From Marsupella aquatica (Eukaryota; Plantae; Marchantiophyta): DNA of 64,000 nucleotides. Positions 3,334 through 61,437 of this stretch are shown here, piece by piece. The stretch is from contig OZ316894.1 of NCBI GenBank assembly GCA_973895155.1, forward strand, positions 13,945,580 through 14,009,579, written 5' to 3'. How positions within the stretch are numbered: position 1 is the first letter of the stretch; each line of letters opens with the position of its first letter. Made by a program: the position numbers and the translations under genes. The notes under the pieces are model-generated. The model made no database searches, was not told the origin of the DNA, and worked only from the letters and a program-made list of their open reading frames with translations.

Positions 3334-6300
3334 TTATGTGTGACTTCCCGTGACGGGGTACCCGTCACATAGCTCCTCTCTTAATTGCGAAGCGCCCCCG
3401 CGAGCACCATACTCTTCCTCCGTGTAGTACTTCTTTAGGCGCTCTTGATTGATCCGTGTGTTGAGTAGTTGCCCCTCCAATGTCTTGAGTTGAACCGAGC
3501 CGTTGGAGTAGACGGCATCCACTACGTAGGGTCCCATCCACCGTGTATGCAACTTCCCGGGGAAATGCATGAAGCGGCTATCGTAGAGGAGCACCAAATC
3601 TCCCTCCTCAATGGACACACGACGGAGACGGGAATCGTAATGTGACTTGCGTTTGCCTTGCTCCTGCTCCGTATGTGTCAAAGCCTCTTCTCGTGTCTCC
3701 GTGAGTTGCTCCAACTGTTGGATCCGTGAAGCGACACTTTCTTCTGCCCCTTCCCTTTCCCGTGTTAGGATTCGAATGGTTGGAACCTCAAATTCCACCG
3801 GCACAAGAGAGTGTTGTCCAAACACAAGGAAATAGGGGCTGTGGCCCGTGGTAGTCTTGTGAGCCAGGTTGTAAGCGTAAGTGGCAGCCAACAACTTCAA
3901 ATCCCAATCGGTCTTGTGAGCGGATACCGTTTTGTTGAGGATCTTGCCCATGATCCCGTTGGCTCTCTCAGTGAGCCCGTTGGCTCGAGGGTGGTACGGA
4001 GTGGTCTTCCTATGTGAGATCAAGTAGTTCTCCGTCAAACGTTCAATCGTATGATTGAGGAAGTGAGTACCCCTGTCACTTACCAACTCCAATGGTGGAC
4101 CAAATCGTGTAAAAATCTGCTCATACAAAAAACGTGCCGTGGTGTTGGCATCATCCTTGGCAGTAGCTCGGGCCTCCACCCACTTGGTGGCATAGTCCGT
4201 TGCAAGAATGATGTAGCGCTTCCTCCCTCTTCGTGTGATGGGAGTGAAAGGGCCAATGAAGTCCACCCCCCACTTCTCAAAGGGTGCAAGAGGAAGTATG
4301 GGCACCAATGGGTGTCGTGAGGAGGGCCCTGGTTTGCCTTGACGCTGGCACGGATCACATCGCTGGATGTACCGGTGTACATCCCGAAAGAGAGTTGGCC
4401 ACCAATATCCAGCATCTAGTATTTTCCTTGCGGTGGTCTCCCGTGCAAAGTGGCCACCAGCTTCCTCCTCATGTAATGCTGCCATGACTGTACGTATCTC
4501 CGCTTCCTCCAAACAACGACGAAGTCGGCCATCCATGCCGTACTTGTGAAGTACTCCCTTCACCAGCAAGTAGGGACCTGTCTTACGCAAAAACACTGCT
4601 GCTCTCTCCGGGCCCAAACGTGAGGGAACTCTAGCCGTGCGGAGAAATTCCAAAATTTCTCCATACCAAGTAGTGGCCTCTGTATTCACGCTGAACACTT
4701 CCTCATCCGGGAACCGATCATCAATCTCCTGGGAGTCAGATGCTCCCTCAATACGGGAGAAGAAGTCTGCATTGCTATGACTCTTCCCCGATCTTACTCT
4801 CACCTCATAGTTGAACTCTTGTAGCAACAAAACCCAACGTGCAATTCTCCCGGACAGATCTGGCTTGTTGACCATGTATTTCAAGCTGTTGTGATCCGTG
4901 TGGAACACAACCTTGTACCCCAACAAATAATGACGATACTTCTTACAAGCGTAGATGATACCAAGTGCCTCCCTATCGGTGGGTGAGTAGTTTTTCTCTG
5001 CCGGGGCCAACTGCCTACTGGCAAAGTAGATGGGATGGTCTCTTCCATCATCATCTAACTGACTCAAAACGGCACCGATGCAAAATCCTGATACGTCTAC
5101 GTAAACATGGAATTCCTTATTCCAATTGGGCGTAATGAGCACGGGGGCCTCTAGCAATCGTTTCTTCAATTCATCAAAAGCAGCCTGACGGGAAGGAGTA
5201 GGTTCAAACTCACTTCCTTTTTTCAACATGGAAGTGAGTGGCATGGCTACCTTGGCAAAGTCTTTGATGAAGCGTCGGTAGTAGCCAACACACCCCAAGA
5301 ACCCTCTCACTTCCTTCACATTCTTGGGAAATGAGACTGCTACCCACACGGCGACCTTCTCACGATCAACTTCAATCCCTCGTGCAGACACTTTGTGGCC
5401 CAATAGGATTCCCTCCTCAATTCCAAAGAAACATTTCTCCGGATGCAGCTTCAGGCAAGTCTCCCGGCACCGCTGAAAAGTCAACCGTAAGTGTTCCGGA
5501 TGCTTGACTCGTTTGCCGTAGACAGCAAAGTCATCAATAAAGATCTCCAAGAACCTGCGTAAAAAGTCATGAAATATATTCATCATGAGCCGTTGGAACA
5601 TGCCAGGGGCATTGCACAACCCAAAAGGCATTCTCCGGAATGCAAAAATCCCCCACTCTGTTGTGAAAGCCGTCTTGAGTTGGTCCTCCTCCCGTATCCA
5701 GATTTGGTTGTACCCAGAGTAGCCATCCAAGAAGCTGTATATCTCCCAACCTGCTACCATGTCCAACACGATATCCGTGAACGGTAGCGGGTAGTGATCC
5801 TTCTTGGTCGCATCATTCAACTTTCGAAAATCTTGGCACACCCGTATTTTCACCTTCCCGTCTGGCCCCTTTTTCTTGGGCACGATTACGATGGGTGACA
5901 CCCACTCACTATGCATGACCGGATAAATGAATCCTGCATCCAACAAACGGTCAATCTCCTCCTTCACCATGAGTGAGTATTTGGGGTTGAGGCGGTATTG
6001 GCGTTGCCTCACAGGTCGTGCTCCTGACATCAGGTCAATGCTGTGCTCACCAAACTCAGGTGGCACTCCTTTCAAATCTTGGTGGCTCCACGCAAATACG
6101 TCTTGGTACTCTTTCAACAATTCCTGAATCGTGCGTTGCTCCGTAGCATCCAACTTACTACCAATGTTGAGTGTCTTGCCCTCACCCACTTCCACCTTTG
6201 TGTACTGCTCCGGCCTGATCACGTCCAACTTGTTGCGTGTCTCCTCATCAAAGGTTTCTTCCAACCGTGCGAGCCTCATCCCTCCATACACCGGTGCATC

Positions 6301-9300
6301 ACTCTCCTCCTGGTCTGGTCGGGATGGAGGTGGATCCTTTGTCACATGGGCCATTATTTCTTCAACGTCAGATTCTTTGTAATGTGACAATAGCTCCTCT
6401 CTAAAGTCATCATCCAGGATGTCATTCAAAAACTGCTCTCTTTGCTCATCATCAAACATGATCGTGTGGGCTTGCATTTCCACCTCCTCGGGGTGATCCT
6501 CTGCCTCCCTATCATGAATCTCGAGAGGTTCAGCCTCCACAATTTTGCTTCGCTCGTCTTCCATCTCTTCTAGAACAGCGTGCACTTGGCTAACTGATTC
6601 CTCTACTGCATGCTCTTGAGTAGCAACTCCGGGGCCAAAAACATCTTCCTCCGTGAGGTGAGAAATCAGTTTCACCATGTATACTTCATCCTCGTCTTCA
6701 TCTGAGGTGACCTCTGAATCATATTCCTCCTCCATAGTCGTAGTCTCCCCGTGAGGTGACTCCGCTGACCATGGAATAGTGATAGTGGGGATACCAAACC
6801 GAAACTGCCGTTTGCCCCAATCACTTGTGACCTTGGCCACATACAACCATGGCCTGCCAATTAAAATGGGAAAACCGTACGGCCGAACGGGTCGCATCAC
6901 CAAATAGTTGAGGGGGAAAGATTTTCCCCCAATCATTGTTGGAATCTTGGTGAGACACCCCAACGGCACCACCCGTGCACCATCAGCCAACCTCATGGCA
7001 CGTGCCGGTGGTTCTAACTCTGTATACCCCAACCGGTTTGCCGTCTCCTCAGTCATGATGTTGACTCCCGAGCCCCCGTCCACCGGTACAAACCGTATTG
7101 CACATCCATTGATGTCCACCGTGAGTTCTGGGGCACCCAAATCCTCCGTGACCCAGTTGACTTGTATGGGGTCAGCCCCAACTTTGGGTAACCTTCGTCT
7201 ACGTCTCCTCCTCATGAGAATCTCCTTGACTTGGCGACGGTATAGGGAGCTATCCCGTAATAGTTGACCAATTGTGGCACTGACTGGGCAATCCAGAATG
7301 TCTTGAGCAATGTTGTACGCGGTTGCAGGAGGTATGGGTGGGATGACCTCTTCTCCCGGTTTCCAACGAACAACCCTCTCCTCCGCTTTCTTTCTGGCCT
7401 TTGCCTCCTCCATGTCTTTGTCAATGGCCGCTTGCATGGCTTGTGCTTCTAGCTCCTCCAACTGCTTACGTACCTCTTCTCCCACCTTCGGATAGAACAA
7501 CTTGGGGTTGTCCCGATCAAAGTCACTATCCTCCATGGGTGGCACCTCCGGTTCGTGTGAGGTACCCGATGTGGAAGCTTGATGCACCTCCTTGTACTTC
7601 TGCTTGAGCTCGGACTTGCCCTTCTTTTTGCCGGATCGAGTGGAGACTCGGTAACAAGAGTAATGCCTTCTCTCCTCGTCGCTGTCTTCCTCCGGTAGAT
7701 TCTCAGCATGAGTCCACTCATGACTTGGGGGTGAGGGGTTAGCAACTTCAACTTCCGTAGATGTTGCAACAACAACCACCGGTATCTCAACAACTGGAGA
7801 TACTACAACGACTAGCGGTACCACCTCCTCCGTTATGGTGGTCATCCTTTGCTTGGGAATGTTCACTACGGTTTCTTCTCTTCTAGTGATTAGAGGGGTG
7901 TCGACTGCTTCCGTGGTGAGAAAGTTGACGCTAGCTTCTTTCAGAGGAGGTGGCGGCCCCTTCTTCTCTTGTGCCCCAATCGGTTGAGCCTTGAACGCCT
8001 CCAAGGTTGGGCAGTGTGGTGCAAGATGACCCTCCCCCTTGCATAGTTGACACAGCCGGGCAAAATCTCCATTGCCTTGACGGGTGGGCTCTGGGCACAC
8101 ATTAGCGTAGTGGCCCGCCACTCTACAATTGTAACAAATAGGGATCTTCCTCACTCCAGGGTACGGTGGTCGATTCCCTGGGTTAGCGTTGGGATAGTTG
8201 GAGTATGCGGGTGCTCCGGCGTTTGTTGAAACTCCATAAATGCTCCGTGGTCCCGGGTTGAGAGGTTGTACACTATACACGTTGGCCTCTGGTGGCTCCT
8301 CCATGAAGTACTCTATTGGCCCTTCCGCTGCATATGAAGGATTTGAGTAGCTTGCCCCCTCAACATCCTCCTCCCGTACTTGGAAAACCTTGGCTGGTTC
8401 TCCCGCTGGGCACTCCTTCGGGGCATGACCAAACTTCATGCACTTGGTGCACCACACATTGGCTCTCTCCACCGGAACTTTTCTCCTCTCAGGTTTGAGT
8501 CCGGCAAAATGTACTTTCAACGCTTTCATTTGCTCCGTCAGCTCATCATATCTGGCCTCTTGCTCCTTCAGGCGTCTTGCCGTAGACAATGGTGTAACGG
8601 CCACCGTGGGTAGTATCACTTCACGGTGAGAGGACTTCTTGACTTTCTTTGACAACTTCTTCTTCTTCCTCCTTCGTCTTTCAGCTTCTGACTCCGTAGT
8701 GTCTGACTCTGTAGTACTCTCAGAATCCTCAGATTCATCACTACTATCTGAATCAGATCCACTCGACTCCTCACTGGAGGAACTGTCAACCGGCTTCAGC
8801 TTCTTTCTTCGGCAACGCTTGCTTGTGGCATCAGCTGCGGTGTATGACTCCGCTGCTGCAATAGCTTCAGCCAATGTGGTTGGCTTGGCTTGACGTACAA
8901 AGAACCCCATCTTGCTTGGTAGGGCAGCCACAAACCAGGCTTGACGCATAGCATCATCGGTACGGGCTTGGATCCGACGTACCAGCTTTTGGAACCTTTG
9001 CAAAAACCTCCGTAATGACTCCTTCTTCTTCATCCTGAGTTGGCCCACCTTTAATAGTGAGGTGGCCTCCACTCCTATGGATCTGAACTCCTTCAAGAAG
9101 GCTTGCTTGAACAGAGCCCAATCAGCTTTCACGTTGGCCAACAACGAAATGAACCATGGACCTGCCTCCCCTCTCATCATTCCAGGAATGATAGTGAGCT
9201 TATGTGCAGACTCCCCATTAGCTTCGGCAATCCCTTCAAACTCCTCAATCCATTCGTCTGGATCATCCTTTGGTCTCCCCTTGAAGGGTACGTACTGAAC

Positions 9301-9732
9301 ACGGGTACGTTGTGCAGCTGCCATCGGTGCAGCCGGTGCCTGTATCAACACAGGTGGTAATGGCGCTTGTTGGGCCACCGGTAACAGCACCGATGATAGG
9401 TGTGAGATGATTTGTGGCAATGCAGTGAGCTCTGGGATCAGATTTTGTAACTCAGACTGCACCAACACAAAGGGCTCTCCTTCTTCTCGCTCGTGATCTA
9501 TGTCTGGCTCTTCGTCTGGGCATATGGCCTCATTACGTTGAGCCTCTTCCTGTTGCACACCAACTTGTTCTTCCAGCACCAGTGGCAACCTCCTCTCTTC
9601 TGCAAGCCGTAAGCGTTCTTCGGCAGCAACTCGTCGTCTGGTCCCAATCCAAGAGGGCCCCCCTTCTAGCTCTGATCTTGGGGTACGTGTGTGTTGGGGA
9701 CTTCCTCTACCTCCCCTTCTCCCTCTCGGCAT
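3334..9732 (-). CDS. Gag-Pol polyprotein, 2132 aa
   Basis: Gag with three CCHC knuckles (CTKC..H..C, CYNC..H..C, CQLC..H..C), protease VDGGSG, RT (RVCQDFRKLN, MPFGL, FIDD), RNase H (VDVS, DREAL, TDH), integrase (H..H..CDPC, WGVDF, SDRG, NGLTER), and WMGPY motif. Confidence 0.97.
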   Translation of the reverse strand: MPRGRRGGRGSPQHTRTPRSELEGGPSWIGTRRRVAAEERLRLAEERRLPLVLEEQVGVQQEEAQRNEAICPDEEPDIDHEREEGEPFVLVQSELQNLIPELTALPQIISHLSSVLLPVAQQAPLPPVLIQAPAAPMAAAQRTRVQYVPFKGRPKDDPDEWIEEFEGIAEANGESAHKLTIIPGMMRGEAGPWFISLLANVKADWALFKQAFLKEFRSIGVEATSLLKVGQLRMKKKESLRRFLQRFQKLVRRIQARTDDAMRQAWFVAALPSKMGFFVRQAKPTTLAEAIAAAESYTAADATSKRCRRKKLKPVDSSSSEESSGSDSDSSDESEDSESTTESDTTESEAERRRRKKKKLSKKVKKSSHREVILPTVAVTPLSTARRLKEQEARYDELTEQMKALKVHFAGLKPERRKVPVERANVWCTKCMKFGHAPKECPAGEPAKVFQVREEDVEGASYSNPSYAAEGPIEYFMEEPPEANVYSVQPLNPGPRSIYGVSTNAGAPAYSNYPNANPGNRPPYPGVRKIPICYNCRVAGHYANVCPEPTRQGNGDFARLCQLCKGEGHLAPHCPTLEAFKAQPIGAQEKKGPPPPLKEASVNFLTTEAVDTPLITRREETVVNIPKQRMTTITEEVVPLVVVVSPVVEIPVVVVATSTEVEVANPSPPSHEWTHAENLPEEDSDEERRHYSCYRVSTRSGKKKGKSELKQKYKEVHQASTSGTSHEPEVPPMEDSDFDRDNPKLFYPKVGEEVRKQLEELEAQAMQAAIDKDMEEAKARKKAEERVVRWKPGEEVIPPIPPATAYNIAQDILDCPVSATIGQLLRDSSLYRRQVKEILMRRRRRRRLPKVGADPIQVNWVTEDLGAPELTVDINGCAIRFVPVDGGSGVNIMTEETANRLGYTELEPPARAMRLADGARVVPLGCLTKIPTMIGGKSFPLNYLVMRPVRPYGFPILIGRPWLYVAKVTSDWGKRQFRFGIPTITIPWSAESPHGETTTMEEEYDSEVTSDEDEDEVYMVKLISHLTEEDVFGPGVATQEHAVEESVSQVHAVLEEMEDERSKIVEAEPLEIHDREAEDHPEEVEMQAHTIMFDDEQREQFLNDILDDDFREELLSHYKESDVEEIMAHVTKDPPPSRPDQEESDAPVYGGMRLARLEETFDEETRNKLDVIRPEQYTKVEVGEGKTLNIGSKLDATEQRTIQELLKEYQDVFAWSHQDLKGVPPEFGEHSIDLMSGARPVRQRQYRLNPKYSLMVKEEIDRLLDAGFIYPVMHSEWVSPIVIVPKKKGPDGKVKIRVCQDFRKLNDATKKDHYPLPFTDIVLDMVAGWEIYSFLDGYSGYNQIWIREEDQLKTAFTTEWGIFAFRRMPFGLCNAPGMFQRLMMNIFHDFLRRFLEIFIDDFAVYGKRVKHPEHLRLTFQRCRETCLKLHPEKCFFGIEEGILLGHKVSARGIEVDREKVAVWVAVSFPKNVKEVRGFLGCVGYYRRFIKDFAKVAMPLTSMLKKGSEFEPTPSRQAAFDELKKRLLEAPVLITPNWNKEFHVYVDVSGFCIGAVLSQLDDDGRDHPIYFASRQLAPAEKNYSPTDREALGIIYACKKYRHYLLGYKVVFHTDHNSLKYMVNKPDLSGRIARWVLLLQEFNYEVRVRSGKSHSNADFFSRIEGASDSQEIDDRFPDEEVFSVNTEATTWYGEILEFLRTARVPSRLGPERAAVFLRKTGPYLLVKGVLHKYGMDGRLRRCLEEAEIRTVMAALHEEEAGGHFARETTARKILDAGYWWPTLFRDVHRYIQRCDPCQRQGKPGPSSRHPLVPILPLAPFEKWGVDFIGPFTPITRRGRKRYIILATDYATKWVEARATAKDDANTTARFLYEQIFTRFGPPLELVSDRGTHFLNHTIERLTENYLISHRKTTPYHPRANGLTERANGIMGKILNKTVSAHKTDWDLKLLAATYAYNLAHKTTTGHSPYFLVFGQHSLVPVEFEVPTIRILTREREGAEESVASRIQQLEQLTETREEALTHTEQEQGKRKSHYDSRLRRVSIEEGDLVLLYDSRFMHFPGKLHTRWMGPYVVDAVYSNGSVQLKTLEGQLLNTRINQERLKKYYTEEEYGARGGASQLREELCDGYPVTGSHT
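3370..3382 (-). other. Polypurine tract
   Basis: AAGAGAGGAGCTA directly before the TG of the 3' LTR. Confidence 0.8.
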
Positions 9733-9949: not shown

Positions 9950-9967
9950 TCCCCGGCAGCGGCGCCA
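9950..9967 (-). other. Primer-binding site, tRNA-Asp type
   Basis: TGGCGCCGCTGCCGGGGA, one mismatch to the TGGCGCCGTTGCCGGGGA PBS recalled for Athila elements. Confidence 0.85.
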
Positions 9968-10568
9968 AAAACAAAAGACCACACTTATGTCACTTGCCTC
10001 TCCAACGGTTAATACGTGCAAACCGCACTTTTCTTCGCTTAAACCGTTGGTATCGTATTACGGGGTCGTGGAGGGACGCTATTTGGATTCTTTTCACACC
10101 AGGATGAGTATTTTGGTTTCCGCTCCCGGAAATGTAGGTTTTGATCAAGTCTACCGACTACCCTCACCCCACAGCTTTTGATCAAGTCCTGCCGACTACC
10201 CCACTACACCTTCACTCGGAGTCACCCAAAGAGTGCTGTCACCACCCCTACTCACAAGGCCGACTCAAACCAAGCAAGTTTCTTCAAATCATAGAACGGG
10301 AGAACACAATTCGGAAAGCGAAAAAGGGAGAAGGAACACACAACAAAAGCCCATCAAGTCCAATGTACAGATCCATATCTCTTGGGAAAAACGATACACA
10401 TTGCATGAGTAACCCGGCCTCCTGCCGTCTACTCAACTCCTGCCTCTCCGGACAATGAGTATGGCTCCCCCTCACTACTCTGAACACGCTTTCAAACTCC
10501 TCAGGCTCCACTCTATCCCTCCTTGCTAACTTCACACTGAGTCCCCCTAACTACTTCGGGGCTATCCC

Positions 10569-10578
10569 CCTAAATACT
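10569..10578 (-). promoter_or_regulatory. Candidate TATA-like box of the LTR genomic promoter (AGTATTTAGG)
   Basis: Same 10-mer at a comparable position in the solo LTR (59351-59360), about 0.6 kb from the LTR 3' end in both. Confidence 0.45.
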
Positions 10579-11098
10579 GAAAAATCACACCAAAGCACCC
10601 CTCACAGGGTCACAACGGTGGCGGCTACCCTAGCGGCGCCGCTAAAACCTTGCACTAAGAGAAATCCTTAAACTGAAGAGGAGCATGCGGCACACACATG
10701 CTGCTAAAACCCTAAACCCAAAACAAGGGGGCCGACGGTGCCTTCGACGGCGCCCCAACAGTACACGTGAACCCTGAAAGTGAGAGGCACCCCAAAATGG
10801 CCGAAACTAGGTGCCCTTCCAAGTGCACACCTGAGCTCACCCCTGGATAGCTCTTCTTTTCCTGCTTCCGAATCACTAAGTCGCTCCCTCAACGGACTTC
10901 AGACGCCTGAGTTATGGCCGTTTCCGTACCGCAAAAACATAAGTTCTCCAGGCCATAACTTGCTCATCCTGGCTCCGTTTGAGGAGCGCCGCCTCTTGTT
11001 GGAATCAGCTCCGCGAGCTCATCCCAACAAGCCCATGAGTGACCCCCCACTAAAATGTTGGAAATCTGGAGGCCGTACACCCACGTCCGTACGCCTAT

Positions 11099-12955
11099 CT
11101 AATCCTCCTCTTCTTCTTCGCTCTCGGTGCCCGGACTTGTGCCCCGTGAGTGGTCCTCCTCCTCATCACTCACGGGAGTGAGTGCCACCGTACTTTTCTT
11201 CTTCTTCGACGGAGTACTCTTAGTGCTGCTGCTCCCGCGCTTCCTCAAAGCAGCCAAGGCCTGCCACGCCTTGATGTACCCCTCACCAATTGTGTCCTTC
11301 CAGAGGGTAGCCTCTTCTCCGGACCGCAACTCCAACGGTAGAACTTGCCCCGTGGCCATGGGAGTCCCGGGGGTGACAGACCTGGGTGGCATCCCCGTAC
11401 TGACCTGAGCCTCCCGTAACGATTTCCGTACCTCCCGGAGCTTCTTCTCCAAGCTCTTACTCTTCTCCTGACTCTTCTTGGCTCCATCCAACAAGGGTCC
11501 ATACTTCCCACTAACCTCCTTCACCACCATCTCGATAGCTTGGGAGATCACATCCGGGGAAAGTGTGGAGCCAGGTGTGCCGGGACTCTTCCGTTTCCCT
11601 AGACTCAGGGCCTCACTTCTCTTCGCTCGTGTCTCAAAGGCTGCCACCTGACTCCGTAGTGCTCCCACCTGGTTCCTCCACTCCATCACTTCTCCAGAAT
11701 TTTGCTTCTCTTTGGCCAATGCTTGCCTCAACGCTCCTACTTCTTCTGCTTCCTTGGCCTTGGTGGACAAAGCTCCCTTCAAGTTGGTGATCTCTACGTG
11801 AGCTGCATTGATGTGCCTGACCTTCTCATGAATGGTCTGCTCCTTGGTCTTGATCACCTCCTTCAGTGACAGGATGCTCTGCTCTAACGTCTCTACTTTG
11901 ACTGTGGCGTGCTTGAGAGACTCCCTCAATGCGTGGACTAGCTTGAGTCCCTCGTGGACTCCCTCTCTGAAATCCCGTAGCTCTGCCAAGTAAACATCCG
12001 GAATGTTGTATTCCAGAGGCTGTTTCGGATCTCCCACGAGTGATTCAAGCCACTCCAATGTGCAATCATCCTCCTGGTTCTCTTCTTCTCTATTATCCTC
12101 CCCACCAGCAGACAATGATTCCTCCGTGAGCTTCCCTAAAACGGTAGTGGCAATACTCCGGATCTCCGTGGTGAGAGATGATCCCGTGTCTTCATGCCCC
12201 GGAGAACCAATCAACCCTTCTGCCCTGGCCAATACAAATGACCCCATCAAATGTACAGCCCCACCTGGTTTCACACTCCCGGGCTCAGCGGCCAATAGCT
12301 TCTTCAATCCGTAGCACCACCATCCGTACACATGGGCTGGGTAGTTCTTGATGTCCATAGCTACCACGAAATGCTCCTCATTCAGCACTCCGGATTGCAC
12401 GTTGCCAAGAACCCGTTGATGCACCTTGGCCAGGAAGCCCTTATACTCAACATCCTTGACAGCAGAAAGAGGGATGGCGGTGGTGGAGGTAGGATTGGTC
12501 ACCCAAGTGGCCACCATTTTCAACGTGAGTTCTCCCCTGATATTCCGAGGTGTGAATGAGAATTTCTGATTCTCAAGAAACAATAGCTTAGCCAACTCCA
12601 CATGGGGCACTACACGTTTGAGACATTCAAAGTAGATTCCCTCCGTTCGGAACTCCATCCCGGCCTCAATGTCCCAGCTCTTCCCTGAAGGGATGGTAAT
12701 CTCCACCTTCATGAATTCTGTAAGCCCGGTGGCTTGGAAAATGTTCCGACAATCCTCCATCACCTTGGTGGAGGTCTTGGGATAAATTCGACGAAAAATC
12801 TTCCTACCCACCGGTGAGGAACCCGCTGCCAATCCCGTGCTCATCATAACTTCTCTCTCTTCCCTTTCCCGTGTAATCCGAGTCTCCACGTAGTCACGGT
12901 AAGCAGCCTTGTATCTCCGAATGCGTGACGCACTAAACTCTGGTTGATCTAGCAT
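11099..12955 (-). CDS. 618-aa LTR-resident accessory protein (5' LTR copy)
   Basis: Translation identical to 407-2263. Confidence 0.85.
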   Translation of the reverse strand: MLDQPEFSASRIRRYKAAYRDYVETRITREREEREVMMSTGLAAGSSPVGRKIFRRIYPKTSTKVMEDCRNIFQATGLTEFMKVEITIPSGKSWDIEAGMEFRTEGIYFECLKRVVPHVELAKLLFLENQKFSFTPRNIRGELTLKMVATWVTNPTSTTAIPLSAVKDVEYKGFLAKVHQRVLGNVQSGVLNEEHFVVAMDIKNYPAHVYGWWCYGLKKLLAAEPGSVKPGGAVHLMGSFVLARAEGLIGSPGHEDTGSSLTTEIRSIATTVLGKLTEESLSAGGEDNREEENQEDDCTLEWLESLVGDPKQPLEYNIPDVYLAELRDFREGVHEGLKLVHALRESLKHATVKVETLEQSILSLKEVIKTKEQTIHEKVRHINAAHVEITNLKGALSTKAKEAEEVGALRQALAKEKQNSGEVMEWRNQVGALRSQVAAFETRAKRSEALSLGKRKSPGTPGSTLSPDVISQAIEMVVKEVSGKYGPLLDGAKKSQEKSKSLEKKLREVRKSLREAQVSTGMPPRSVTPGTPMATGQVLPLELRSGEEATLWKDTIGEGYIKAWQALAALRKRGSSSTKSTPSKKKKSTVALTPVSDEEEDHSRGTSPGTESEEEEED

Positions 12956-13392
12956 CCATGCATCCCGAAATCAATTTCTCAATCACCAATCCCGTCACCC
13001 GTGGCAATGTCAATTCCCTGGCCCGAAACAGCCCCCGTAGCCCGATCACTTAAATTCTCTCAATTTCCCGTCACTACTCCGTGCGGCCGCCACTAATGCC
13101 TGGAAGAATGACGCCAGCAAGCCCCACTAATCCACCATGAAAGAGAGAGCTTCAAAAATAATTAGAATCTGGAGAGAGCTTCCGGCAAGAGAGAGAAGAA
13201 CCCCGTTTTTGCTTTCGGCAATGAGAGGGTCGTGCAAAAGGAAGAGGGAAAGAAAAAGGAAGGAAAAAAAAATAGAACCGAAAAAACTCCTGGCGCCTTC
13301 GCCATGCGCCCCGGCCCATTTCTCGGGCCTTACCCTTGCGTCCTCCTGCGCGCGGCCCTATGCAGGGCGCGCGGCCATTCCTCCCGGCTCGC

Positions 13393-13533
13393 GGGAGGCC
13401 CTTCAACTCCCCCCCGCTCGCGTGATCCTCCCAGCTCGCGGGAGGCCCTTTAACTCCCCCCCGCTCGCGTGATCCTCCCAGCTCGCGGGAGGCCCTTTAA
13501 CTCCCCCCCGCTCGCGTGATCCTCCCAGCTCGC
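13393..13533. repeat. 3 x 47-bp tandem repeat in 5' LTR
   Basis: Same unit as 2701-2888, one copy fewer. Confidence 0.95.
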
Positions 13534-14014
13534 GGGACCTCATTAATTGCCCGGGCACGCAGCCCTATGGGCTCGCGAGGCAGCCCCTTCAGCTCGCGGA
13601 GCCCCATTAATCGCCCGGGCACGCAGCCCTATGGGCTCGCGAGGCAGCCCCTCTTTCTCTCGGACGGCCACTAATGGGACTCGCCCTCCTGAGGAGGGAT
13701 TTATTTAAAAAAAAACCCCCCCCTCTCCTGACTTTGCAATGGGGGTCTCAACAATAGCTCTTGAAGCAAAACGGTAAGTCCTATGGGGCTGGTCCTGGCT
13801 AGTTTCAAGGTCCCAAAATATTTGCCCACTTAGGTCGCCGCAAATCTTAGAACTATTATGAGAGAAAGAATATAAAGTCACCTGGGGCATCATCAACCTA
13901 TAATGACGGAATTAACTAAAAATTAAAAAATGGCTTATTTACATTGACTATTAACAAGGTATCGGCCTTTGCAACCAGTTATGTGTGACTTCCCGTGACG
14001 GGGTACCCGTCACA

Positions 14015-20688: not shown

Positions 20689-20863
20689 AGCCAACTAGTT
20701 ATCATTTGTGTTCTCTTGGCCGATATGGATTGCAAGAAGGTGATCGATGGGGCTCACTTGTACCCGGCCTCCTGATCTTCACACTTAAAAAGGTGTATAT
20801 CAGCCCTGTAGAACTCATGGCTAGCTAGAGTTAGGGGACCTTACTCCCAGCTAGGGGGGCGAT

Positions 20864-26700: not shown

Positions 26701-27890
26701 TATATATACCCCAGTTGTGATGGGCATTCTCTTTAAACTACAGAAAGATAAAAGAAAAAGCACAAAGAGAAAGATCTACAAATGATTTAACACGAAGTAG
26801 AAACAAAAGGAAAGTCCGTTCAGTGTTCATAGCCGACCAGATACGTTTGTTAAATAATGCCGGGCTAAATTACTGTAGCGCCGCCGGCTTGCGGAGGGCC
26901 CCAAGGCCCAACCACCAATTGCAACTACGTACAGGGACTGGGGTTGTGTGCTACTGTAATGGTCGGCCTGCGTGTGGTTCAATTTACCGATGGGTCGCGA
27001 TGCACTACGATGGCAGAGATCGACCATCGATACCACTCCGACACGGCGACTCTGCTTCCGACGAGCTTCAAGGCTCGTGAGGGCACGTCGGAGCGTTTCC
27101 TTTTGGATCTCTTTGAGAGGTTCCCTTCCTTCCTTTCTTTCTTGCCTGGTCATCACAAATTCACAGTCAGATAGTTCGAAGAATGCGGTGAGGTAGCAGC
27201 AGTAAAGTCAGTGGCCTTGGGCAGCGGGCGGTGCCGCAAGCAAACAGCACGCAGCGAGACAGGCGAGAACATCGCGCCCTCTCAACAGTCGTACTGCATA
27301 GAAGTACAGTAGAGGCTTCCCACACACTACTCCGCATTATTTGTGCAGGTTTCTTCTATCTGTCGAGTGAGCGTGCGCTGGTTTCCCTCGTTTTGGGTGG
27401 TCTCATACTCTCATCTGCCCGCTGTACCGTTCTCCGCCTTTCCTCTGGCAGCGGAGTCGACCTTTCCAGTAAAGGAACGGTGTGGTACGTTAGCCTTCTT
27501 TTCCGGGATTGGCCTACGGATTGGAGGAGGAGGTCGACTCTTGTAGATGTAAGTCAGATAGTAAGTACGTGCAATTGAATTCTAGGTGAGCGAGAGCTAC
27601 AAAGCCTTACTGAGGTAGTGTTTCGAGACGACAAGGATTTTGTTTAATTATAGAGTGTAACACGAACGAAGTGGAGCAGGAGCTGAGGAACTGCTTCATC
27701 AATCGGGTTACGAGGTTTGGATCTTCATCTCAAGGAGGGTTGGATTCTCATGAGGGAGGGATTTGCTTGGATGCGGAGTGGGGTGTGAGCCTCGCTGCGT
27801 GAAGTCGGGACTTTCTTCTCGAGTATCAGGTTTATTTGGGCCTGGTAGATCGAGCCTGCTGGAGTGTGGTAAAAGGGCGATTTCGTGGCT

Positions 27891-28682
27891 ATGGTAGGCA
27901 TGGCCTTGGGGTTTTTGGAAAGCTCTTGTGTGCGGAAGTTAGGAACCTGTCCAGCCGTTGCTGAAGGAGGCCAGACCAGTATATCGAGAAGTGTAGGTGC
28001 ATGCTTCGTCCCTTTGCCTCAGTTATGGAGAGTTTTTGTCCCGCAACGAGTAGATAGTGGCAGGAGACTTGTACACTGCGCGGAGCAACCGTCCAGGACA
28101 TCCTTTGGAGCTAAGGTTCTTTCCCGACCCACGACTTCGATTCCCCGGAGCACAGTTGCGGATTATCCCTCTGTACCGAAGAAGCCGCTTGAGCTTTACA
28201 CAGTAGGTGACTTCATGACTCGAGTGGAGGATCTTTATTGTGCAAGCCCGGGCACCACCGTGGATGAAGCGCTGGAGACATTGGTGGAGAAGAGGATTAC
28301 AGGATTGCCCGTTATCGATGAGCAAGGTAGGTTGGTTGGGGTGGTTTCGGACTATGATTTGCTTGCACTGGATTCCATCTCAGGTAAACGGAACGATGAA
28401 GGTAGCCTATTCCCTGCAGCGAACAGCACCTGGAAGGCTTTTAAAGAGATTCAGGTTCTTCTAGGGAAAACTCATGGAAAGACTGTTGGTGAGCTGATGA
28501 GCCCCTCTCCCATTGTCGTCAGGGAGCTGACGAATATTGAGGATGCGGCCAGGATTCTGCTGGAGACCAAGTTCAGGCGCCTGCCAGTCGTTAGTGAGAC
28601 GGGAAAGCTGGTTGGGTTGTTGACTAGAGGTAATGTAGTGAGGGCTGCGTTGATTATAAAACGATTGAACCAAAACGAGTGA
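27891..28682 (+). CDS. CBSX1: CBS domain-containing protein, chloroplastic (CBSX1/CBSX2-like), single coding exon
   Basis: Transit-peptide-like N-terminus, then YTVGDFMT..TTVDEALETLVEKRITGLPVID..LVGVVSDYDLLALDSISG..TWKAFKEIQ..LEDAARILLETKFRRLPVV-type motifs ..GKLVGLLTRGNVVRAAL. CBSX1 and CBSX2 cannot be distinguished here. Confidence 0.92.
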   Translation: MVGMALGFLESSCVRKLGTCPAVAEGGQTSISRSVGACFVPLPQLWRVFVPQRVDSGRRLVHCAEQPSRTSFGAKVLSRPTTSIPRSTVADYPSVPKKPLELYTVGDFMTRVEDLYCASPGTTVDEALETLVEKRITGLPVIDEQGRLVGVVSDYDLLALDSISGKRNDEGSLFPAANSTWKAFKEIQVLLGKTHGKTVGELMSPSPIVVRELTNIEDAARILLETKFRRLPVVSETGKLVGLLTRGNVVRAALIIKRLNQNE

Positions 28683-47644: not shown

Positions 47645-50246
47645 ATGGAAGGGGGGAGATTTTTTATGCGATATTGGGGAAGGGGGTGGAGATCGAGTTT
47701 CCAACTCAAATTCATGTCAGAATTGTACTACAGAGGATCTGTGACGACGAATGTCGTGGCCAAAATCACCAAAATTGTAGATAGCTATTATGGATCAGCT
47801 GACCAGTGGAAACTGGACAAGTTGCGTTCGCTCTCGTTTTTCACTACCAGGGAATTCTCTTCGGGTGAGACCGAGCGAAAGAGAAAGAAATTAATGCCAT
47901 TGCAGGTAAGCTGATTCAGTTCTCGTTTTGAGTACAAAGGACTCGAGGGTGTTTTTAAGTTTTAGCTTTTCGTCGGTGGATCTGTGTTGGATATGTTTGA
48001 AGGCGTGTTTCATTGGAAGGCTAGGACAGCTGTTTTCTGGTCCTCTGGGGCTGTCCGGGTCTCGGTGAGTGTCTCGATTGTTTTGCATCGAAAGTCGGTG
48101 ATTGACTATCCAGGCAAGGGCTACCATAGCGTGTTAAAATAACAGACCTAATGGTCCGCCTGGGAGCAGGAGCGGAAGATGATAGATAAATTTAGACTAC
48201 ACGTGCGAGGCGGTGACGGCGGAGGAGGTTGCAGCAGTTTCCGCAAGAGTATCCAATCACGACATGGTTCTGCTGATGGTAGATTTCGCGTAACAATGAT
48301 GGCCTTCATCAGTGTTGGTTCTCCTTCAAAATTGGGCATTTGAATGAATTTCTTAAGTACGCAATGATTTGTTTGAACTCTGCGTAACAAAGCTGAATTG
48401 CTCACAATGGCTTAGTTTTCTTTGTTTGCTGAAGGGGGTAATGGAGGGAGTGGTGGGGATGTGATTCTAATAAGCTCCGCAGCAGTGTGGGACTTCAGCA
48501 ATCTTCAGCACCACCTTGTATGCTCGTCACTGAAGCCCTCTGCTCTGTTTTTTAGGGAAGACCTATTCTAACAGATGTCATTTTTTATGAAGTTAGGGAT
48601 TGAATGCGAGATGTCCAAATCCCTTTGTGACCTGATTTTCAGATATTTGATTTTATGATAAGGGAATGCCAGTTCTCCAATATTATCTTAGAGGTATGAG
48701 TTATGGGTGAAAGCAGACGGTGTCGCTCGAGCCCCGTCATTTGCCAGAAGGATTGACTTTTGGAACACTCGGCTAGGCAGACACGTTCCTTACGAGTTGC
48801 ATCTGTGAACGGTCTTACTTGAACTACAGAACGGGAGCAACGGTGGACCAGGTTCTTCAAAGAAGAAAGTCGGTAGCCGGGGCAAGGATAAGGTCAGTGT
48901 TTTGACGAGCATTTATCTGAATTCATCTTAGTTTTCGTGAGTCTTGTTTTGCCTTTTGTCCAACCGCATTTCTCACTTGTTACTCTGGCTTGGGGTCTGC
49001 ATTTGGCGCTCTTTGACAGATTGTGCAAGTACCTGTCGGTACTGTGATTCACATCGCGAGAGGGTCCATACCATCCTTTGAGCAAGGGCCACCCGCACAA
49101 GAAGAACCAACTTGGGAGGAATGGGAAGGTGTGCCCTCACATGGGAAAAGTAACCCCTTATCTGACAAATCCCAGTGTGTCAAGGCTGAGTTGTCCACTG
49201 AAAGCGAAGGTGTACAAATCGAGTGTTCATCTCCTCTGGACCCCAGTGGAAAACGTGGACACAATCCAAGCGCCAGATCTCTTCAAAATTCCAAGCTACT
49301 GATGCCAGACGTGGATCCTGGCGAACTAGGTTTCCTGAAAGCTTCTGATCACAATTCCGTTCTTCAAGTCCTTTGTTTAAGCTCAGATGGGGACACAAGC
49401 TTCTCCAGTAAAAGTCCTGATGAATATGATTTGGATGGCATCAATGATGAGGACGACGACGATGACAGCTTCAAGCAAGATGTACAGAGCTCAGTAGCAG
49501 AGTTCGTGCACGTTGGACAGAGCATCATCGTGGCTCGTGGAGGTATTGGAGGTAAAGGCAATGCAGCCATGGCAAGGGGAAGGGGTTCTGACAAAGCTCT
49601 ACCAAGTTATGAACACGAATTGGGGCACCCTGGGTCCGAAGCAGATTTGATTGTAGAGCTTAAAACTATTGCAGATGTGGGTCTTGTTGGGGCACCCAAC
49701 GCTGGTAAAAGCACACTCTTAGGTTCTTTGTCGCGGGCTAAACCCACCACAGGCCACTATAAGTTCACTACGTTAAGACCAAATATTGGTATGGTAGAGT
49801 TTGAGGATTTTTTCATTTTGACAGTGGCAGATATTCCGGGTCTTATTGAAGGTGCGCACGAAAATAGAGGGCTGGGACATGCATTTTTGAGGCATATAGA
49901 ACGAACCAAAGTGTTAGCTTATGTAGTAGACTTGGCAGGTGGGATTGGTGATGACAAAGGACTTCTGCCATGGGACCAATTTCAAGAGTTAGTGTTTGAG
50001 TTAGAACAATATCAGAGTGGTTTATCACAACGACCATCCATACTAGTTGCAAACAAAATAGACGAAGAGGGAGGCCTCGAAGCACTAGAAGTGCTTAGAT
50101 CAAAGATTCCACAAATGGAGATATATCCTGTATGTGCGGTGCTCGAAGAGGGTGTAGAAGAATTGAAAGTAGCTCTTCGGAGGCTTGTGGAGTCCTCCCA
50201 GTCGAATTCCCCTTCATTATTACGTTTGTCAGATGCTCTTCTTTGA
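47645..50246 (+). CDS. OBGM: Obg/CgtA-family GTPase, mitochondrial type; exons 47645-47905, 48170-48278, 48435-48517, 48830-48892, 49020-50246
   Basis: GT-AG introns keep the frame. MIDKFRLHVRGGDGGGGC..DGGNGGSGGDVIL..WDFSNLQHHL..VQVPVGTV, ARGGIGGKGN, ELKTIADVGLVGAPNAGKSTLL, FTTLRP, ADIPG, NKID. The start codon is less certain. Confidence 0.92.
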
Positions 50247-53700: not shown

Positions 53701-56629
53701 ATGTACAAAATGCAAAATGAATAATCATAACACCAGCAACTACATAATCCCTAAATATCTTAGGGATCTTTATCAAAGTTCTCTCCAAGGGAGAACACCA
53801 TGAAATGATCAAAAGGAAACCCATGGAACTTTTATGGAATTCTCTGATATATTCCATGATTTTTCTTATCAACCAGCAAACCTTGAGACACACTAAGTCA
53901 CTCAAAATCCCACATTACAACCTTAGAACATCCAAGTACTATATTATTGATAGCGGAACTACACACTCTATACTTAGAGAAAAGAAACTTTTTCACAACA
54001 TCACTCCTTCACGTAGATCTATAATAACCATCAATGGCCAAAGCCAAATAGAAGAAGAAAATGGACCAGTATCCTTAAGATTACCCCAAGGCACCAAAAT
54101 ACATAAAGGCTCTGCTATATATGCCCCTAAGGCAATGCAAAACCTTTTGGGTTTCCGTGAACTGCGTGCCAATGGACTTCATGTCCAAACTGGCAACACT
54201 AATACCCAATAAGTTATTCACCTGGTTGAAAACACCCCTTCCCGGGTCAAATTATTAAAGAAACCCTGTTCTCGTACACGTGTGGATAATACCTTACAAA
54301 AATAGAAGTTTATATAACTTTACTACAATGCAGACTTTCCATACACTTTGGCATGATAGGTTAGGTCATCCTGGTCAAACTATGCTAAAGAAAATTATAC
54401 AACATTCTTAGGGATACCCAAAACCAAATTCCCATGCATTCACCATGCCCAGCATGCTCTAGAGGCAAACTAATAACAAAACCCTCCATATCAAAATTGC
54501 CAACACAAATACCTCCATTCCTTTCTTTCATACATGCTCATATATGTGGACCCATTAACCCACCTAGTGGACCATTTAGATATTTTATGGTATTAATACT
54601 TAGATGCATTGACCAAGTGGTCAAATGTTACCTTACATTCCACACGCAACTTAGCTATAGCACGCATATTAGCACAAATCTTGTGAATTAAAGCCGGAAA
54701 TTTCTTGAGCACCCTTTCAAGACTCTATGTATATAATGCGGGGGAATTCACTTCCACCACTTTTGATGATTTTTGTACTTCTTTAGGTATTGATGTTCAA
54801 TACCCAGTACCACATGCCCATTCTCAAAACCGGCTAGCTGAGGTGATCATTAAGCGCTTACAACTTATTGCACTACTCATGCACTCACAACTCCCAGTAT
54901 CTGCATGGGGACATGCTATATTACACGCTAATATACTCATACAATATCTTTCATCAACATTTAACTCATTGAGCCCATACCAAATGAGTACTGGCAAACC
55001 GCCAGATTTATCCCACCTCTACTCATTTGGATGTCAGATTATGGTACCCATAACCCCGCCCAAACAAACAAAGATGGGACAACAACGACAACTTGGAATA
55101 TACATCGGATTTGACTCTCTGTCAATAATCCGTTATTTAGAGCCTGCAACACATGATATATTTAAAGCAAGATTTTGAGATTGTCATTTTGACAAAGAAA
55201 TTTTCCCCACATTGAGTAAAACCTTGGCAAACCTGATGCACATCCCCTTCCACCCTTGGAATGGAATAGAACTTCACCATTTTGGCAAGACATCACGACA
55301 AATGAGGGAGAACGAAGTCCAACGCATCTTACAACTCCATAAATCATAGAAGAGCTACCAGATTCCTTTGTCAATGCGACAAAGGTTAATTACACGCTAA
55401 CACATCCCTTTGGCTAATACTCTAGCCCGCATAACTTTATTAGATGAACCAGCCATAATCCAACAACCTCAACAAAAACAAGGACGTCCACCTGGCACTA
55501 AGGATAAATAGCCACGTAAACGCCAATCGGCTTCACCCACTACATCAATAGATCCATCTACTCTTAATGAGGAAATTTTGATACATTACACCCATACTCG
55601 CAAAATGTGGAAGAGATAGCTCATCCTGTCGGATGACCACTTTGCGTTAATGGTAGCTACATACTAATGTTACCAATGACACTCCAAAACCTATATTTAT
55701 TTTAGAATGCCAAAGTAGGCCTGACAGTTGGCCTAAGTGGAAAATTGCTATTAAAGTAGAACTTGATTCTCTTATTAGCCAAAATACCTTTTGTTTGGTG
55801 AAACCCACCCCACTTAATGTCCACCTCATTGGCTACAAGTGGACCTTTGTCCAAAAAAGAAATGGTAGTGGCCAAGTAATCTGATACAAGGCCCATTTAG
55901 CTGGAAAAGGTTTTCCACAATAGCCCAGTACCCACTATGATAATACTTACTCACCAATGATGGACAACATCAAATTTCAATATTTGATTTGTTTTGCCAT
56001 TTTTTACAAGTTGAAAATGAGGCAAATGGATGTTGCAAATTTGACATACCTTTATGGGACGCTTGATACGTGCATTTACATGCGCGCCCCACCAGAACTA
56101 GAAGCACAATGACATGCTTTGACTCAAGGAGCCACATCGCAAATTCCATATTTACAAAAAACTTACTTTAAATTTATCTCATATGAATCTCAACGTGTCA
56201 TCTACACATACCAATAATGAGATTAATACTACACCACAAGACACCACTATGTCTACCATACGGCATACTTGCCATAGACTAGCTATCCACATGTTGAAGG
56301 CCTTATGTGGTCTGAACAAAGTGGCAGAGTATGGTATCAAAAATTTATTGATGAGATGATTGCCATGGGTTTCTTTCATGATGCTATACTGATGATGAGT
56401 TCGTCATCGTTGCTATCTATGTTGATGATTTAAATATTTTTGACACTCCAAAAATAACTAAAGATACAATCAAAATACTAAAGACCACTTTCAAATGAAA
56501 GATGTTGGTACCACTAAGTTTTGTATTGGTTTATAGCTGGAAATATTGCCCACTGATATTTTATTACATCAAATCACATACACTGAGAAAATCCTCAACA
56601 ATTTAATATGCAACTTGCTCATTAGAAAA

Positions 56630-59600
56630 TGTGACACGGGCAACGTGTCACTTGACATGAAGCAAACGTCAGATTAGAACGTATACGGTCATTAGGACCG
56701 TATCCATATAGTTAGGATGTGATGGAAAGTTGCTTTTGCAATTATGTTTAGACTAGGAATTATAGGTTAGTCAACTTAATGAGTACTGATTACCATGCGC
56801 ACTATTACAATTGTCCACGGTATGATGGCAGCGACGGAGTAAAAGTTTTTTGTATCAAATCATGCTTGGACCGAGACAGTCGACTGAATTAAATGATGGC
56901 GGCTAACGGCCTTCAATACCCTCACGCCCGAGCTCGCCCAAGAGCCCCCATAAAAGCACGAGTTGCTGGCACGGCCGCCCATTTGCCACTTCGCGCTTCT
57001 TAGATCACTTGGACCTTGTCAGGTCTCTCTCGCCGTAGCCACTCTTGGTTGAAGCTCACTTTTATCGAAGGAAATTGGAGGTTGCGGATATATTGTGGCG
57101 AGATTTAGTCAGGATCAACATCTTCTTTGCAGGAGATCACGGACCTTTGGCGTCGCGACTAAGCTAGGAAAGAAGACTCAACCAGAGGAATGTGAAGGTT
57201 AGTCCTGTGGACAACACCAAGTGTTCGCCACGCTCCGGGGGGCTGGTTAGTCCGCAGTTGGAGCAACGTCCCCGAAAGCGGACTAGGAAAACATCAGGCT
57301 TGGAACCCACTACATGGACAAACCCCGTCCCCACACCAACTCCAGCCCAACCAACCCGCCAGCGAACACCCAGTCCCGGAGGGCCTCAGACTACCGTCAG
57401 CCAAACTTGCTGTAGGTAAACCATGTCCCCGAGGTAGTCTGGTCCGCTATCAAGAACCCATCGCATGCGGACTATCTCAAGGAGCATTAGTTGGAGCAAT
57501 TTGCTCATTTGAACTGGAGGCCCATTGCCTCTGGACCAAGGGAGGTGTACGAGTTCATCTCCAATTTTGACATTGACACACCTGCCACCAAGGGATCAAG
57601 GCAGATCTTGTCACTTACGGAGTACCGATTGGCCCAGATCTTTTGTCTGCCAACTGGGCTGGTACCAGTCAAACTCTGGATCCGGGATAAGGAGTACACG
57701 CCCAAGTACTTCAAACCAGAGGGCAAGATGGACAACGGGTACAAATAGGGCTCGTGTACCAATCTAATTTGTATGGAGCGGCTAAACTTCATACGGACTA
57801 CCCTACACATGATCGAACCCCGGTCCAAGATTTCCCTTTGTACGATTGTACAGGTGGAGCAATGCAAGCGGTGGAACTGGGCCAAATTCTTTAGCCGCCG
57901 GTTTTTGGGAGAGCTCAAATGGGCATGCCTATCGGGGGAAGAACGTACCTGGGGAGTCACATTGCCATCATCCTAGGCTGGTACAAACAGCGGCGTGAGA
58001 TTAGAGGGAAGAATATGGCCACCTCGGCCCCAACCGACGCTGCCACCACCCCCGGACGTACGGCCCCAAGCGCCCCGACTACCACGGCTAGGGTAAACCC
58101 CAACCTCACCATTCCTCAGACTACCCCTCCGCCCTCCACTCCGTTAGGCACCATTATGAATTTTGGACCACCCCCGCCATCCCCTGCCGTCAAACCCCCA
58201 CTACCCCCAACGCAATCGCCCCCAATTCCACCACCACCTAAGGAACCCATCCCTTCCCCAATGCGGACTTTGGAGGAGGTCGTCGCTCCAACCGTGGACG
58301 TACCATTACCCAAGAGAATGGAGGATTATCGGGTAGTTCCAGGGACCTTGGCCCACAACCTAATCCAGAAGTTCAGCTAGGACCTATCAAGGAACTAGCA
58401 ACATACATCAGGAAATAGGTCGCCCAGTACTTCCAACCGGCCTTCTTCATGTTAGATCACCAACCGCGGATCATAACCCGCTTGGAGGATGAACTCATGG
58501 CCAAGGGGAATGACTATGGAGCGACTGGGGGAGGCAGCCACCGCTCGTGACGAGGAGTTAGTCTGTGTCACCCAACAACCGAACGGACTAAACCAAGAGT
58601 TGCTTAAGGCTCAGGCTGATGTTACAAGACTCGGAGCCACCGTACTCCAGCTTCAAACAGAGTCCTTGGCTTGGGTTAATAGCCTGACCGACCTGGACAA
58701 CCAGTTTGTTCAGGCTGCCCAGCAGGTCAATGCTATCACCGCCAATCGGGACAAGTTGTTGGCCCAGAGCCAGGCCGATCTTCAAACAATTGGCCAACTC
58801 AACTTGGAGGTGGCCCGGCTCCAGATGGAGGTCGACAACGTCTCCAATGAAGCGGAGGAGGCGGTGTGGGATAATAAGGTCTTACAGGAGCGGATTACCC
58901 TGCTGGTAAGCCAGCGGAGCAGGGCAAGAAATGCCTCTGATCAAGGCGGCTCGAGACCCCAACCTGACAAGGGGACAAACCCTAGACCAACAGCGTGATC
59001 CACGAGAGGGGTGGTTAGCGGTGGGGGCGATTGGGCGGCTGCTCAGTGCGACCAGCAGGCCAGGGTATCTTTTTGAGTTAACCATAGTGACCGAGTAGCT
59101 GTCATTAGGCACCGATTAGTTGCGTGGTAGGCAAGATTAGGAAAAGTTAGTTAGGATCATCCAGGGTAGGATAGGCGGCAATCAACGGGCTAAAACGATT
59201 GGCAATAGGACTTAGATGCTAGCGCCGCGGTCAACGACCCTTGCCATTGACAATCAACAAGATAGTGGGCAGGCAATCAACCGCGTTAGTAAGTAGTTAG
59301 TCAGGTAGGCCTTAGCAAGGGAGGTAGAATCTCCCCCGCCCATTGGAAGTAGTATTTAGGCTCCCCCTTCCGCTAGTGGAGGGGAGAGGCTAGTAGCTTA
59401 TTTCAGTTAGGAAAAGTATTGCGCACGGGGAGTCCCGGCCTAAGTAGGATCGGAGAGCACTAATTAAGGAGTGAGAGCCAGAGTTGATCTTGCTAGGCAA
59501 GTGCAAGACAGGGTCTTGTAGAGGCTGGGCATTGATTGCCGTTAGGCCTGCCGATCACTTAGAAGTCAAGTCAACTATGTAAAATGGTTCTTCTTATCTG

Positions 59601-60001
59601 AGTAAACCTTGTCTTCCCTCGATCTTTTGAGAGTAGTTTGTGTTGCATGTGTGCCTTGCCTTGACAAAGGCGCCATTTCAAGGGACGTACCGGGTGCGGA
59701 CTAATGGTTGGGATTGTCAGGAAGCATATGCTGCAAAGCCTGGTCGCGGCGATGGCTTGAAAGTCCCCAAGCCGGGAATTAGTCCGAGTCACTAACTATG
59801 GGATCCTTCTAGCGGTGGAAACCAAATATACCTATGATGTCTGTATTGGTTGCGTAATATTATATCAGTACTTGTACATAGTCCGACTTAGACTAATTAA
59901 GGCCACTACACCCCTCCTTGCCCAAAACCTCACCCTTACTGGAGGTTGTGCGCATGCCAACGAGTTAACCCGGATTTAAGGCCCGGGTTAGTGGCGCGAC
60001 A
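56630..60001 (+). mobile_element. 3372-bp solo LTR with TSD GAAAA
   Basis: TGTGAC...GCGACA flanked by GAAAA on both sides, interrupting the copia RT. No gag/pol and no internal LTR pair seen. Confidence 0.85.
57192..58998 (+). pseudogene. Disrupted LTR-resident accessory ORF (globular domain, Pro-rich linker, coiled coil)
   Basis: Five abutting plus-strand ORF pieces spanning ~1.8 kb, joined by stops or frameshifts. Confidence 0.75.
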
Positions 60002-61437
60002 GAAAACAATGCCGATATTTTCCAGAAATGTGAAGAGGATGAACCCACATTAGAACCTAAAACTCCATGTACCTTTTTGCACTTGTTTTGCAATAGGTGC
60101 ATTAATGTATTTAGTAAACTAGACTAGACCAAATATTTCTTTTGCAGTTAACTTACTTGCAAGACATAGTGCTAACCCCACTTCCGGACATTGGAATGGA
60201 GCTAAGCATATATTCCGCTACCTCTATGGACACTTAGACACCGGATTATTCTTTCCATTTCTTACTACTCACAAAATTTTGGGATATGCGGATGCTGGGT
60301 ATCTTTCCAATACCTACACTGCTAAATCTTAAACAGGTAAGTTTACGTCTTCCTTGTAGGCGATGTTACTTTATCTTGGAAAAGCGTTAAACCAACCTTA
60401 ACTGCAACATCCTAAAACCACTCAAAAATACTTGCACTTCATGAGGCTAGCAGAGAAGCTGTATGGTTATGTTCACTCATCAACCACATCCAAGTTAAAT
60501 GCGGATTTGACCCACTGACCAAGCCTACTAATATTTTTGAAGATAATGCAGCTTGCATCCAAGGATCACACAAGGATTTATAAAAGGTGATTGTGTGAAA
60601 CATATAGCACCAAAGTTCTTCTACACTCATGAACTACATGGTAAAGTGATCAATGTACTGCAGATACAAAGTGCCGACAATTGCGCAAATCTTTTCACCA
60701 AATCATTGACTCCTATTGTTCATCAATGACATTGCCATGCGATTGGACTTTGGAGCTTACGATGATTAATGTCCGAGACATGATACACCCTATTGATGTT
60801 GCTGCTATCTACTGATTGTGTTTTTCTGGAGATGACTGCTACTATTGATACCATACTTACTATCGATACGACTTCAACAAGGAGGATTATTGGGACTGTA
60901 CTCTTTTTCCTCTAAAATCACAATTTTTTTCCTCTATTACACTGATAGAGTTGCTAAAGGTTTTAACGAGGCAGTCCTCCTCACTTGTAGTTACATCATG
61001 CGTTATGTATAAACATGATCGTTTATCTCAGATATATATGTACTATAGATTTTCTACATAGTTGTTACTATATAGCCAAGGGGGGGTGTTCTAACCTCAA
61101 TAGACATAACCATGGTTATACTAACCACATGTCCTAACTGGACATCACTCATGTATATAACATTGGTTATTTTCCAACCATCATGAATCCATTCAATCAT
61201 TCTTTGCTCTAACACTTTAAAGTTTGTAGGGGTTTTTTAGTAAAAAATGGCAAAATTTAAAGAAAGAAAGCATTTTGAAAAAAAATCACTTATAAGTTAG
61301 GGGTAAAACCCTAAAATGTTGCACGCAATGTATGGCCCTCCATATAGTGACCCCCCCCAAGGGATTTCACTTCCATAAAAATGGCACATCACGCGCAATT
61401 GAATGGATTCATGATCGATGATTGTTGAACAAGCCAT

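Follow-up and report, generated by a model that had tools for sequence, protein, structure and literature searches.

A 64,000-bp stretch of the genome of the liverwort Marsupella aquatica (contig OZ316894.1, positions 13,945,580 to 14,009,579; hereafter the window) contains a 3372-bp insert that is very probably a solo long terminal repeat (LTR). The explanation that we somewhat favour overall is that the insert was left by a Gypsy-type element and carries a broken accessory gene with a VANC21-like fold, whose intact protein would likely have bound DNA, oligomerised through a coiled coil and promoted transcription. The insert starts with TGTGAC, finishes with GCGACA and is flanked on each side by GAAAA, a target site duplication (TSD) that is abolished by a one-base shift at either end (Table 1). 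It interrupts a single decayed Copia reverse transcriptase (RT), the halves of which are co-oriented across it. No gag or pol frame was found within the insert by open reading frame (ORF) and domain scans, so that the first-pass annotation of a TG..CA insert of this length, with a 5-bp TSD and devoid of gag/pol, was accurate. Nor did the insert contain an internal repeat of at least 40 bp or an internal LTR pair, a tandem array, terminal inverted or direct repeats, or, on the gene strand, any of the three primer binding site (PBS) motifs scanned for.

Further copies were detected in four public sequencing runs from two coded organisms, the best-matching one of which may be the window's own sample. 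The sampled words of the insert were present at 62-85% in these runs, which make up four of the five rows listed. The insert with its flanks (55900-60700) was matched by 668, 1825, 1995 and 719 contigs; those less than 90% alike to it numbered 281, 851, 903 and 368, respectively, and all bins were covered. Each of the four runs has contigs that match many parts of the insert at 82-87%, implying other genomic copies, and one contig (X4 record 31, 59968-60634) spans the right junction with zero differences. Given the TSD, the split Copia, the diverged contigs and the bridged junction, the insert is a genuine insertion and belongs to a repeat family whose copies have diverged. An assembly artefact was rejected on account of the junction bridged in one run and the multicopy family, a TRIM/LARD-type element with short LTRs because the insert has no direct repeats, and a DNA transposon origin because it has no terminal inverted repeats.

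Inside the insert lies the decayed frame that had been described earlier as a domain followed by a low-complexity linker and a coiled coil, and this layout is confirmed by homologues that tile it in order: the domain at ~57314-57925, the last helix of that domain, which lies in the next frame, at ~57940-57990, and the coiled coil at ~58530-58970 (tblastn with composition correction off, the coiled-coil matches being unspecific). This copy of the gene is dead, having seven or more stops and one change of frame. The suggestion that the gene persists in solo LTRs therefore holds only for a wreck, and maintenance of solo copies was not borne out. The homologues were recovered with the residues translated from 57416-57934 (X at stops), for which HMMER returned 24 matches at E<=0.001 among 1.84 billion cluster representatives, the best at E 2.3e-14 and 36% identical over query residues 5-167. 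Two of them, P0022 (F5/8 repeats) and P0027 (NB-LRR), were removed as spurious before profile building. Thirteen of the 22 kept were looked up, and eight of these proved to be predicted proteins of the liverwort Calypogeia fissa, as were 11 of the 12 matches of the profile search. The profile scores the insert at 143 bits, which is partly circular, yet the frame-shifted piece lies outside the query and fits the next model positions. Several homologues are intact, with 620-830 aa comprising domain, linker and coiled coil. The longest (P0031, P0040, P0042 and P0051) have in addition a conserved block of ~110 residues N-terminal of the globular domain, which has no Pfam match and was not seen in the insert by tblastn. 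Judging from these matches, the gene belongs to an old family that extends beyond the M. aquatica genome. Full HMMER alone matched the insert domain; word-seeded protein searches with it, and with the domain of a 618-aa protein considered below, gave no match, and neither the insert nor the homologues matched the Pfam families plant mobile domain (PMD, PF10536), DUF1985 (PF09331), ATHILA (PF03078) or Transposase_32 (PF20167).

The domain of one homologue, P0004, yielded a confident model, predicted from a 36%-identical relative and not from the insert gene itself. Nearly the whole model matches the DNA-bound domain of VANC21 (PDB 9LNK), the one structural match found, with 12% identity to VANC21, and it shows the fold of that domain. 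No match came from Foldseek against PDB and BFVD or from sequence comparison with PDB, and the Atlas leads for the family were to DUF1985 and PMD clusters at 0.88. From this modelling, the domain probably has the VANC/DUF1985/PMD fold, and the intact protein therefore likely bound motifs in the DNA of its own element.

Table 1. Coordinates, in window numbering, of the insert, its gene, the interrupted Copia and the comparator element 1
Feature	Position	Strand	Basis or remark
Insert, likely solo LTR of Ty3/Gypsy-type element	56630..60001	+	3372 bp, TG..CA ends, TSD, no internal repeats, multicopy
Left TSD, GAAAA	56625..56629	+	end inspection
Right TSD, GAAAA	60002..60006	+	end inspection; junction bridged by contig
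Perfect 8-bp terminal hairpin	56631..56651	+	starts at base 2 of insert; same place and first five pairs as in element-1 LTR
3' hairpin, 8 bp	59966..59990	+	ends 11 nt before insert 3' end; element-1 counterpart a 9-bp stem, 14 nt before end
TATA-like motif, candidate promoter	56946..56955	+	presumed motif type; ~320 bp into insert, upstream of gene
Broken globular domain of accessory gene	57314..57990	+	homologue matches; three stops, one frame change
Pro/Thr-rich low-complexity linker	57991..58476	+	stops at 58378-58474
Open 173-codon stretch, predicted coiled coil	58477..58998	+	ends at gene stop; aligns to coiled-coil tails of P0040, P0008, P0042, E 2e-4 to 3e-3
Decayed Copia RT, left of insertion	56330..56624	+	translation; weak RVT_2 match, E 0.053
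Decayed Copia, right of insertion, same orientation	60007..60400	+	translation; tblastx to Copia remnants 22708-23105, E 7e-13
Element-1 5' LTR (comparator)	9988..14014	-	4027 bp
Element-1 3' LTR	1-3369		holds identical copy of 618-aa ORF
Intact 618-aa ORF in element-1 5' LTR	11099..12955	-	identical copy at 407-2263 in 3' LTR
Element-1 gag-PR-RT-RH-INT frame	3334..9732	-	single frame, no chromodomain match

The assignment to an LTR lineage relies on comparison with a second element of the window, element 1 (1-14014). This is a complete Gypsy element: it has a single gag-pol frame, primers of PBS-like and purine-rich type, and LTRs that each hold a gene for a 618-aa protein. Element 1 is very young, its aligned LTRs showing 0 substitutions over 3321 columns and gaps in 49 columns, which supports the earlier view that the insert is the older of the two, an age that can be given relative to element 1 only, a solo LTR not being directly datable. 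Most of these gaps are due to a GC-rich tandem array with a 47-nt unit, which lies upstream of the LTR gene and differs by one unit between the LTRs (4.4 vs 3.4 copies). The PBS-like motif (9943-9987) lies ~19 nt from the LTR end and does not adjoin it; in the excerpted text of one survey (PMC6317226), the search for self-primers reached just a few bases from the LTR. As had been noted at first sight, there is no alignable DNA between the insert and the element-1 LTR. Both nevertheless start with TGTGAC and form a perfect 8-bp stem in which the first five pairs are the same and two are changed. A stem of this kind starts at 25 of 63,960 window positions, and all three sites combining it with TGTGAC are these LTR starts. 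At the other end, both have a stem preceding a G(T/C)GACA terminus, against a background of 39 in 2000 random positions. Relative to repeat length, the gene extends from 23 to 70% in the insert and from 26 to 72% in the element-1 LTR. Because of the terminal hairpins that they have in common, the insert and element 1 are likely members of the same broad LTR lineage, although this likeness was spotted post hoc, is not a published lineage criterion and might be widespread among bryophyte LTRs.

Whether the two LTR genes are also related is less clear. The first-pass annotation had proposed kinship, which the sequence tests did not bear out: five profile tests gave no significance, and these are weak, one-sided tests, since the 618-aa side had no alignment. 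The single-sequence model of the 618-aa domain had a pLDDT of 35.7, and a fold search with this low-confidence model gave helical bundles only, 9LNK being absent among the 50 matches listed. On balance we still lean towards homology, for which there is a weak Atlas lead. The strongest rival, which we consider a tentative but serious alternative, is that element and fold are as proposed and that the insert gene and the 618-aa gene go back to separate captures. Two accessory genes, unrelated or just remotely related, would then have come to lie in long LTRs, their resemblance being no more than the common layout of domain and coiled coil. The negative tests fit this, as do the diverging Atlas leads, those of the 618-aa domain being weak and directed to ATHILA (17%) and Transposase_32 (56%) at 0.83 instead of DUF1985 and PMD, and the hundreds of unrelated groups that extra ORFs form (PMC6317226, cited here, like PMC4408406, PMC5418596, PMC5735166, PMC13547354 and bioRxiv 2024.09.27.615353, from excerpts). 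Against it, the hairpins and the gene position argue for shared LTR ancestry, and the tests themselves have little power. Hence, of the proposed old trait of LTR-resident genes across divergent families, the age of the gene family and a likely common LTR lineage stand, whereas kinship of the two genes is a proposal that we lean towards.

On the explanation that we favour, a Gypsy element would have inserted into the old Copia, after which its two ends would have recombined, leaving a single LTR with the TSD intact. The LTR promoter, presumably including the TATA-like motif, would drive an RNA in which the gene is likely the first cistron because it lies downstream of that motif in the body of the LTR, and a full element would hold two gene copies, one in each LTR. 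As VANC recognises short motifs of the element that encodes it and lifts silencing (PMC5735166), the intact protein would by analogy bind LTR motifs of its own element; the coiled coil would oligomerise it, and the bound protein would help to keep the element transcribed. By the same analogy, the 47-nt array is a candidate target of element 1's own LTR protein. An anti-silencing or activating role through DNA binding is plausible on this basis, if a little short of probable; the insert has no tandem target array, and the element-1 LTR has one. It could also be, though we think it rather unlikely, that the protein is an accessory factor that does not bind DNA (acting in the particle, in transport, as an env-like protein or as an interaction decoy) and shares only the fold. 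With 24 K+R against 17 D+E, the domain has no more than a mild net positive charge, one homologue is even net acidic, and the functions of Athila/Tat extra ORFs are not established (PMC7264820; PMC4408406). However, the only structure matched is that of a DNA-bound domain, which accounts for almost all of the model, and no hydrophobic, membrane-like stretch was evident by eye in the translations (no predictor was run).

The alternative that the insert is instead a non-autonomous unit complete in itself, or is derived from a DNA transposon and carries a VANC-like gene, is improbable. It would agree with VANC being a gene of a Mutator-like DNA transposon (PMC5735166), with the fact that no pair of inserts was observed in the window, and with two split gene copies of C. 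fissa (CAM6101869/70 and CAM6101879/80; 97.6-98.8% identical, ten accession numbers apart) that stand in reversed order, unlike a direct LTR pair. The TG..CA ends, the 5-bp TSD, the absence of terminal repeats and of the three PBS motifs scanned for on the gene strand, and insert ends built like those of a proven LTR speak against it, as does the TSD of Mutator elements, which is ~9 bp. Neighbouring accession numbers in C. fissa, taken as a stand-in for LTR pairs, gave no support (CAM6123799/6123801 are just 85% alike, and the order of the 98% pair is reversed), and scans of metagenome contigs for DNA context gave 518 and 55 pattern matches, none confirmed. Finally, the stops and the frame change might suggest a chance frame or long-dead relic with no role in the family, which the intact homologues in other organisms and the confident fold make very improbable.

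Retroviral genes residing in or overlapping the LTR are familiar from MMTV sag, lentiviral nef and foamy-virus bel, all located in U3. Like them, the insert gene lies inside the LTR and is hence duplicated and left in solo LTRs, but the proteins are unrelated and the insert gene is likely downstream of the LTR promoter. For element 1, the PBS is of the type that we take to be that of Athila (tRNA-Asp), and the single gag-pol frame, the lack of a chromodomain match and the weak Atlas lead of the 618-aa domain are further likenesses. The insert gene resembles the Athila ORF-1/Transposase_32 extra ORFs in its sense orientation; these lie between pol and the 3' LTR (PMC7264820), in contrast to a gene within the LTR, and the insert family has no Pfam match. 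Extra ORFs of plant LTR retrotransposons in general are placed on either side of gag-pol, most of them in the stretch from pol to the 3' LTR, and their function is unknown (PMC7264820); PMD, Transposase_28 and Athila ORF-1 mark those of Ogre, Retand and Athila (PMC6317226). The PMD ORFs of Tat/Ogre likewise combine a domain with a coiled coil (PMC4408406), and the Atlas leads connect the insert family with PMD clusters, PMD being also the domain of the host MAIN/MAIL proteins. Those ORFs, however, are mostly antisense and either precede gag or sit between pol and the 3' LTR (PMC6317226), PMD has been surveyed as an angiosperm domain whereas the insert family is likely bryophyte, and its origin in host or retrotransposon is an open question (both PMC5418596). 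Moss Tat-like elements are reported to lack extra ORFs in the excerpted text of PMC4408406. PMD and MAIN resemble VANC, and PMD resembles DUF1985 (bioRxiv 2024.09.27.615353; PMC13547354). From VANC21 itself, a DUF1985 protein of the Arabidopsis Mutator-like element VANDAL21, the insert family differs in its likely LTR retroelement context with the gene inside the LTR, in its low identity without a Pfam DUF1985 match or, in the insert, a tandem target array, and in being likely bryophyte, whereas VANC is called dicot-specific in the excerpted text of PMC13547354; from VANDAL elements the insert differs in its TG..CA ends, 5-bp TSD and lack of a transposase. Among the titles and abstracts covered, largely outside subscription journals, none dealt with a plant gene inside an LTR or a bryophyte VANC-like retrotransposon protein, although the element table of PMC6317226 might list LTR-located ORFs. 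An accessory gene with a domain and a coiled coil is thus already known; what appears to be new is its location within an LTR, together with the link to VANC in a retroelement that is likely from a bryophyte.

Elsewhere in the window, 319-nt inverted repeats (94%) at 17061-21319 enclose two frames, one for Gypsy RT-RH-integrase (18167-19948) and one of 209 codons that faintly matches PHD. A single open frame at 49017-50246 amid retroelement debris encodes an Obg-family GTPase (MMR_HSR1, GTP1_OBG) and is possibly a retrocopy, and an open frame at 27873-28682 has two CBS domains.

The structural link of an unclassified liverwort family to DNA-bound VANC21 leads to a testable hypothesis, namely that the protein binds LTR motifs and relieves silencing, and it would extend the transposon-borne fold back to bryophytes. 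A gene internal to the LTR would also outlast solo-LTR formation with its transcription unit complete, and could then act in trans. More speculatively, and in our view unlikely as a whole, an old bryophyte Gypsy lineage may carry a VANC-type, sequence-specific anti-silencing factor in its giant LTR, with promoter, targets and regulator copied as a unit and co-diverging between families, and with the 618-aa protein as the active counterpart in a young family. If this were true, the VANC/PMD fold would be an ancient retrotransposon tool, older than angiosperm VANC and MAIN and overlooked in bryophytes because it is hidden inside the LTR.
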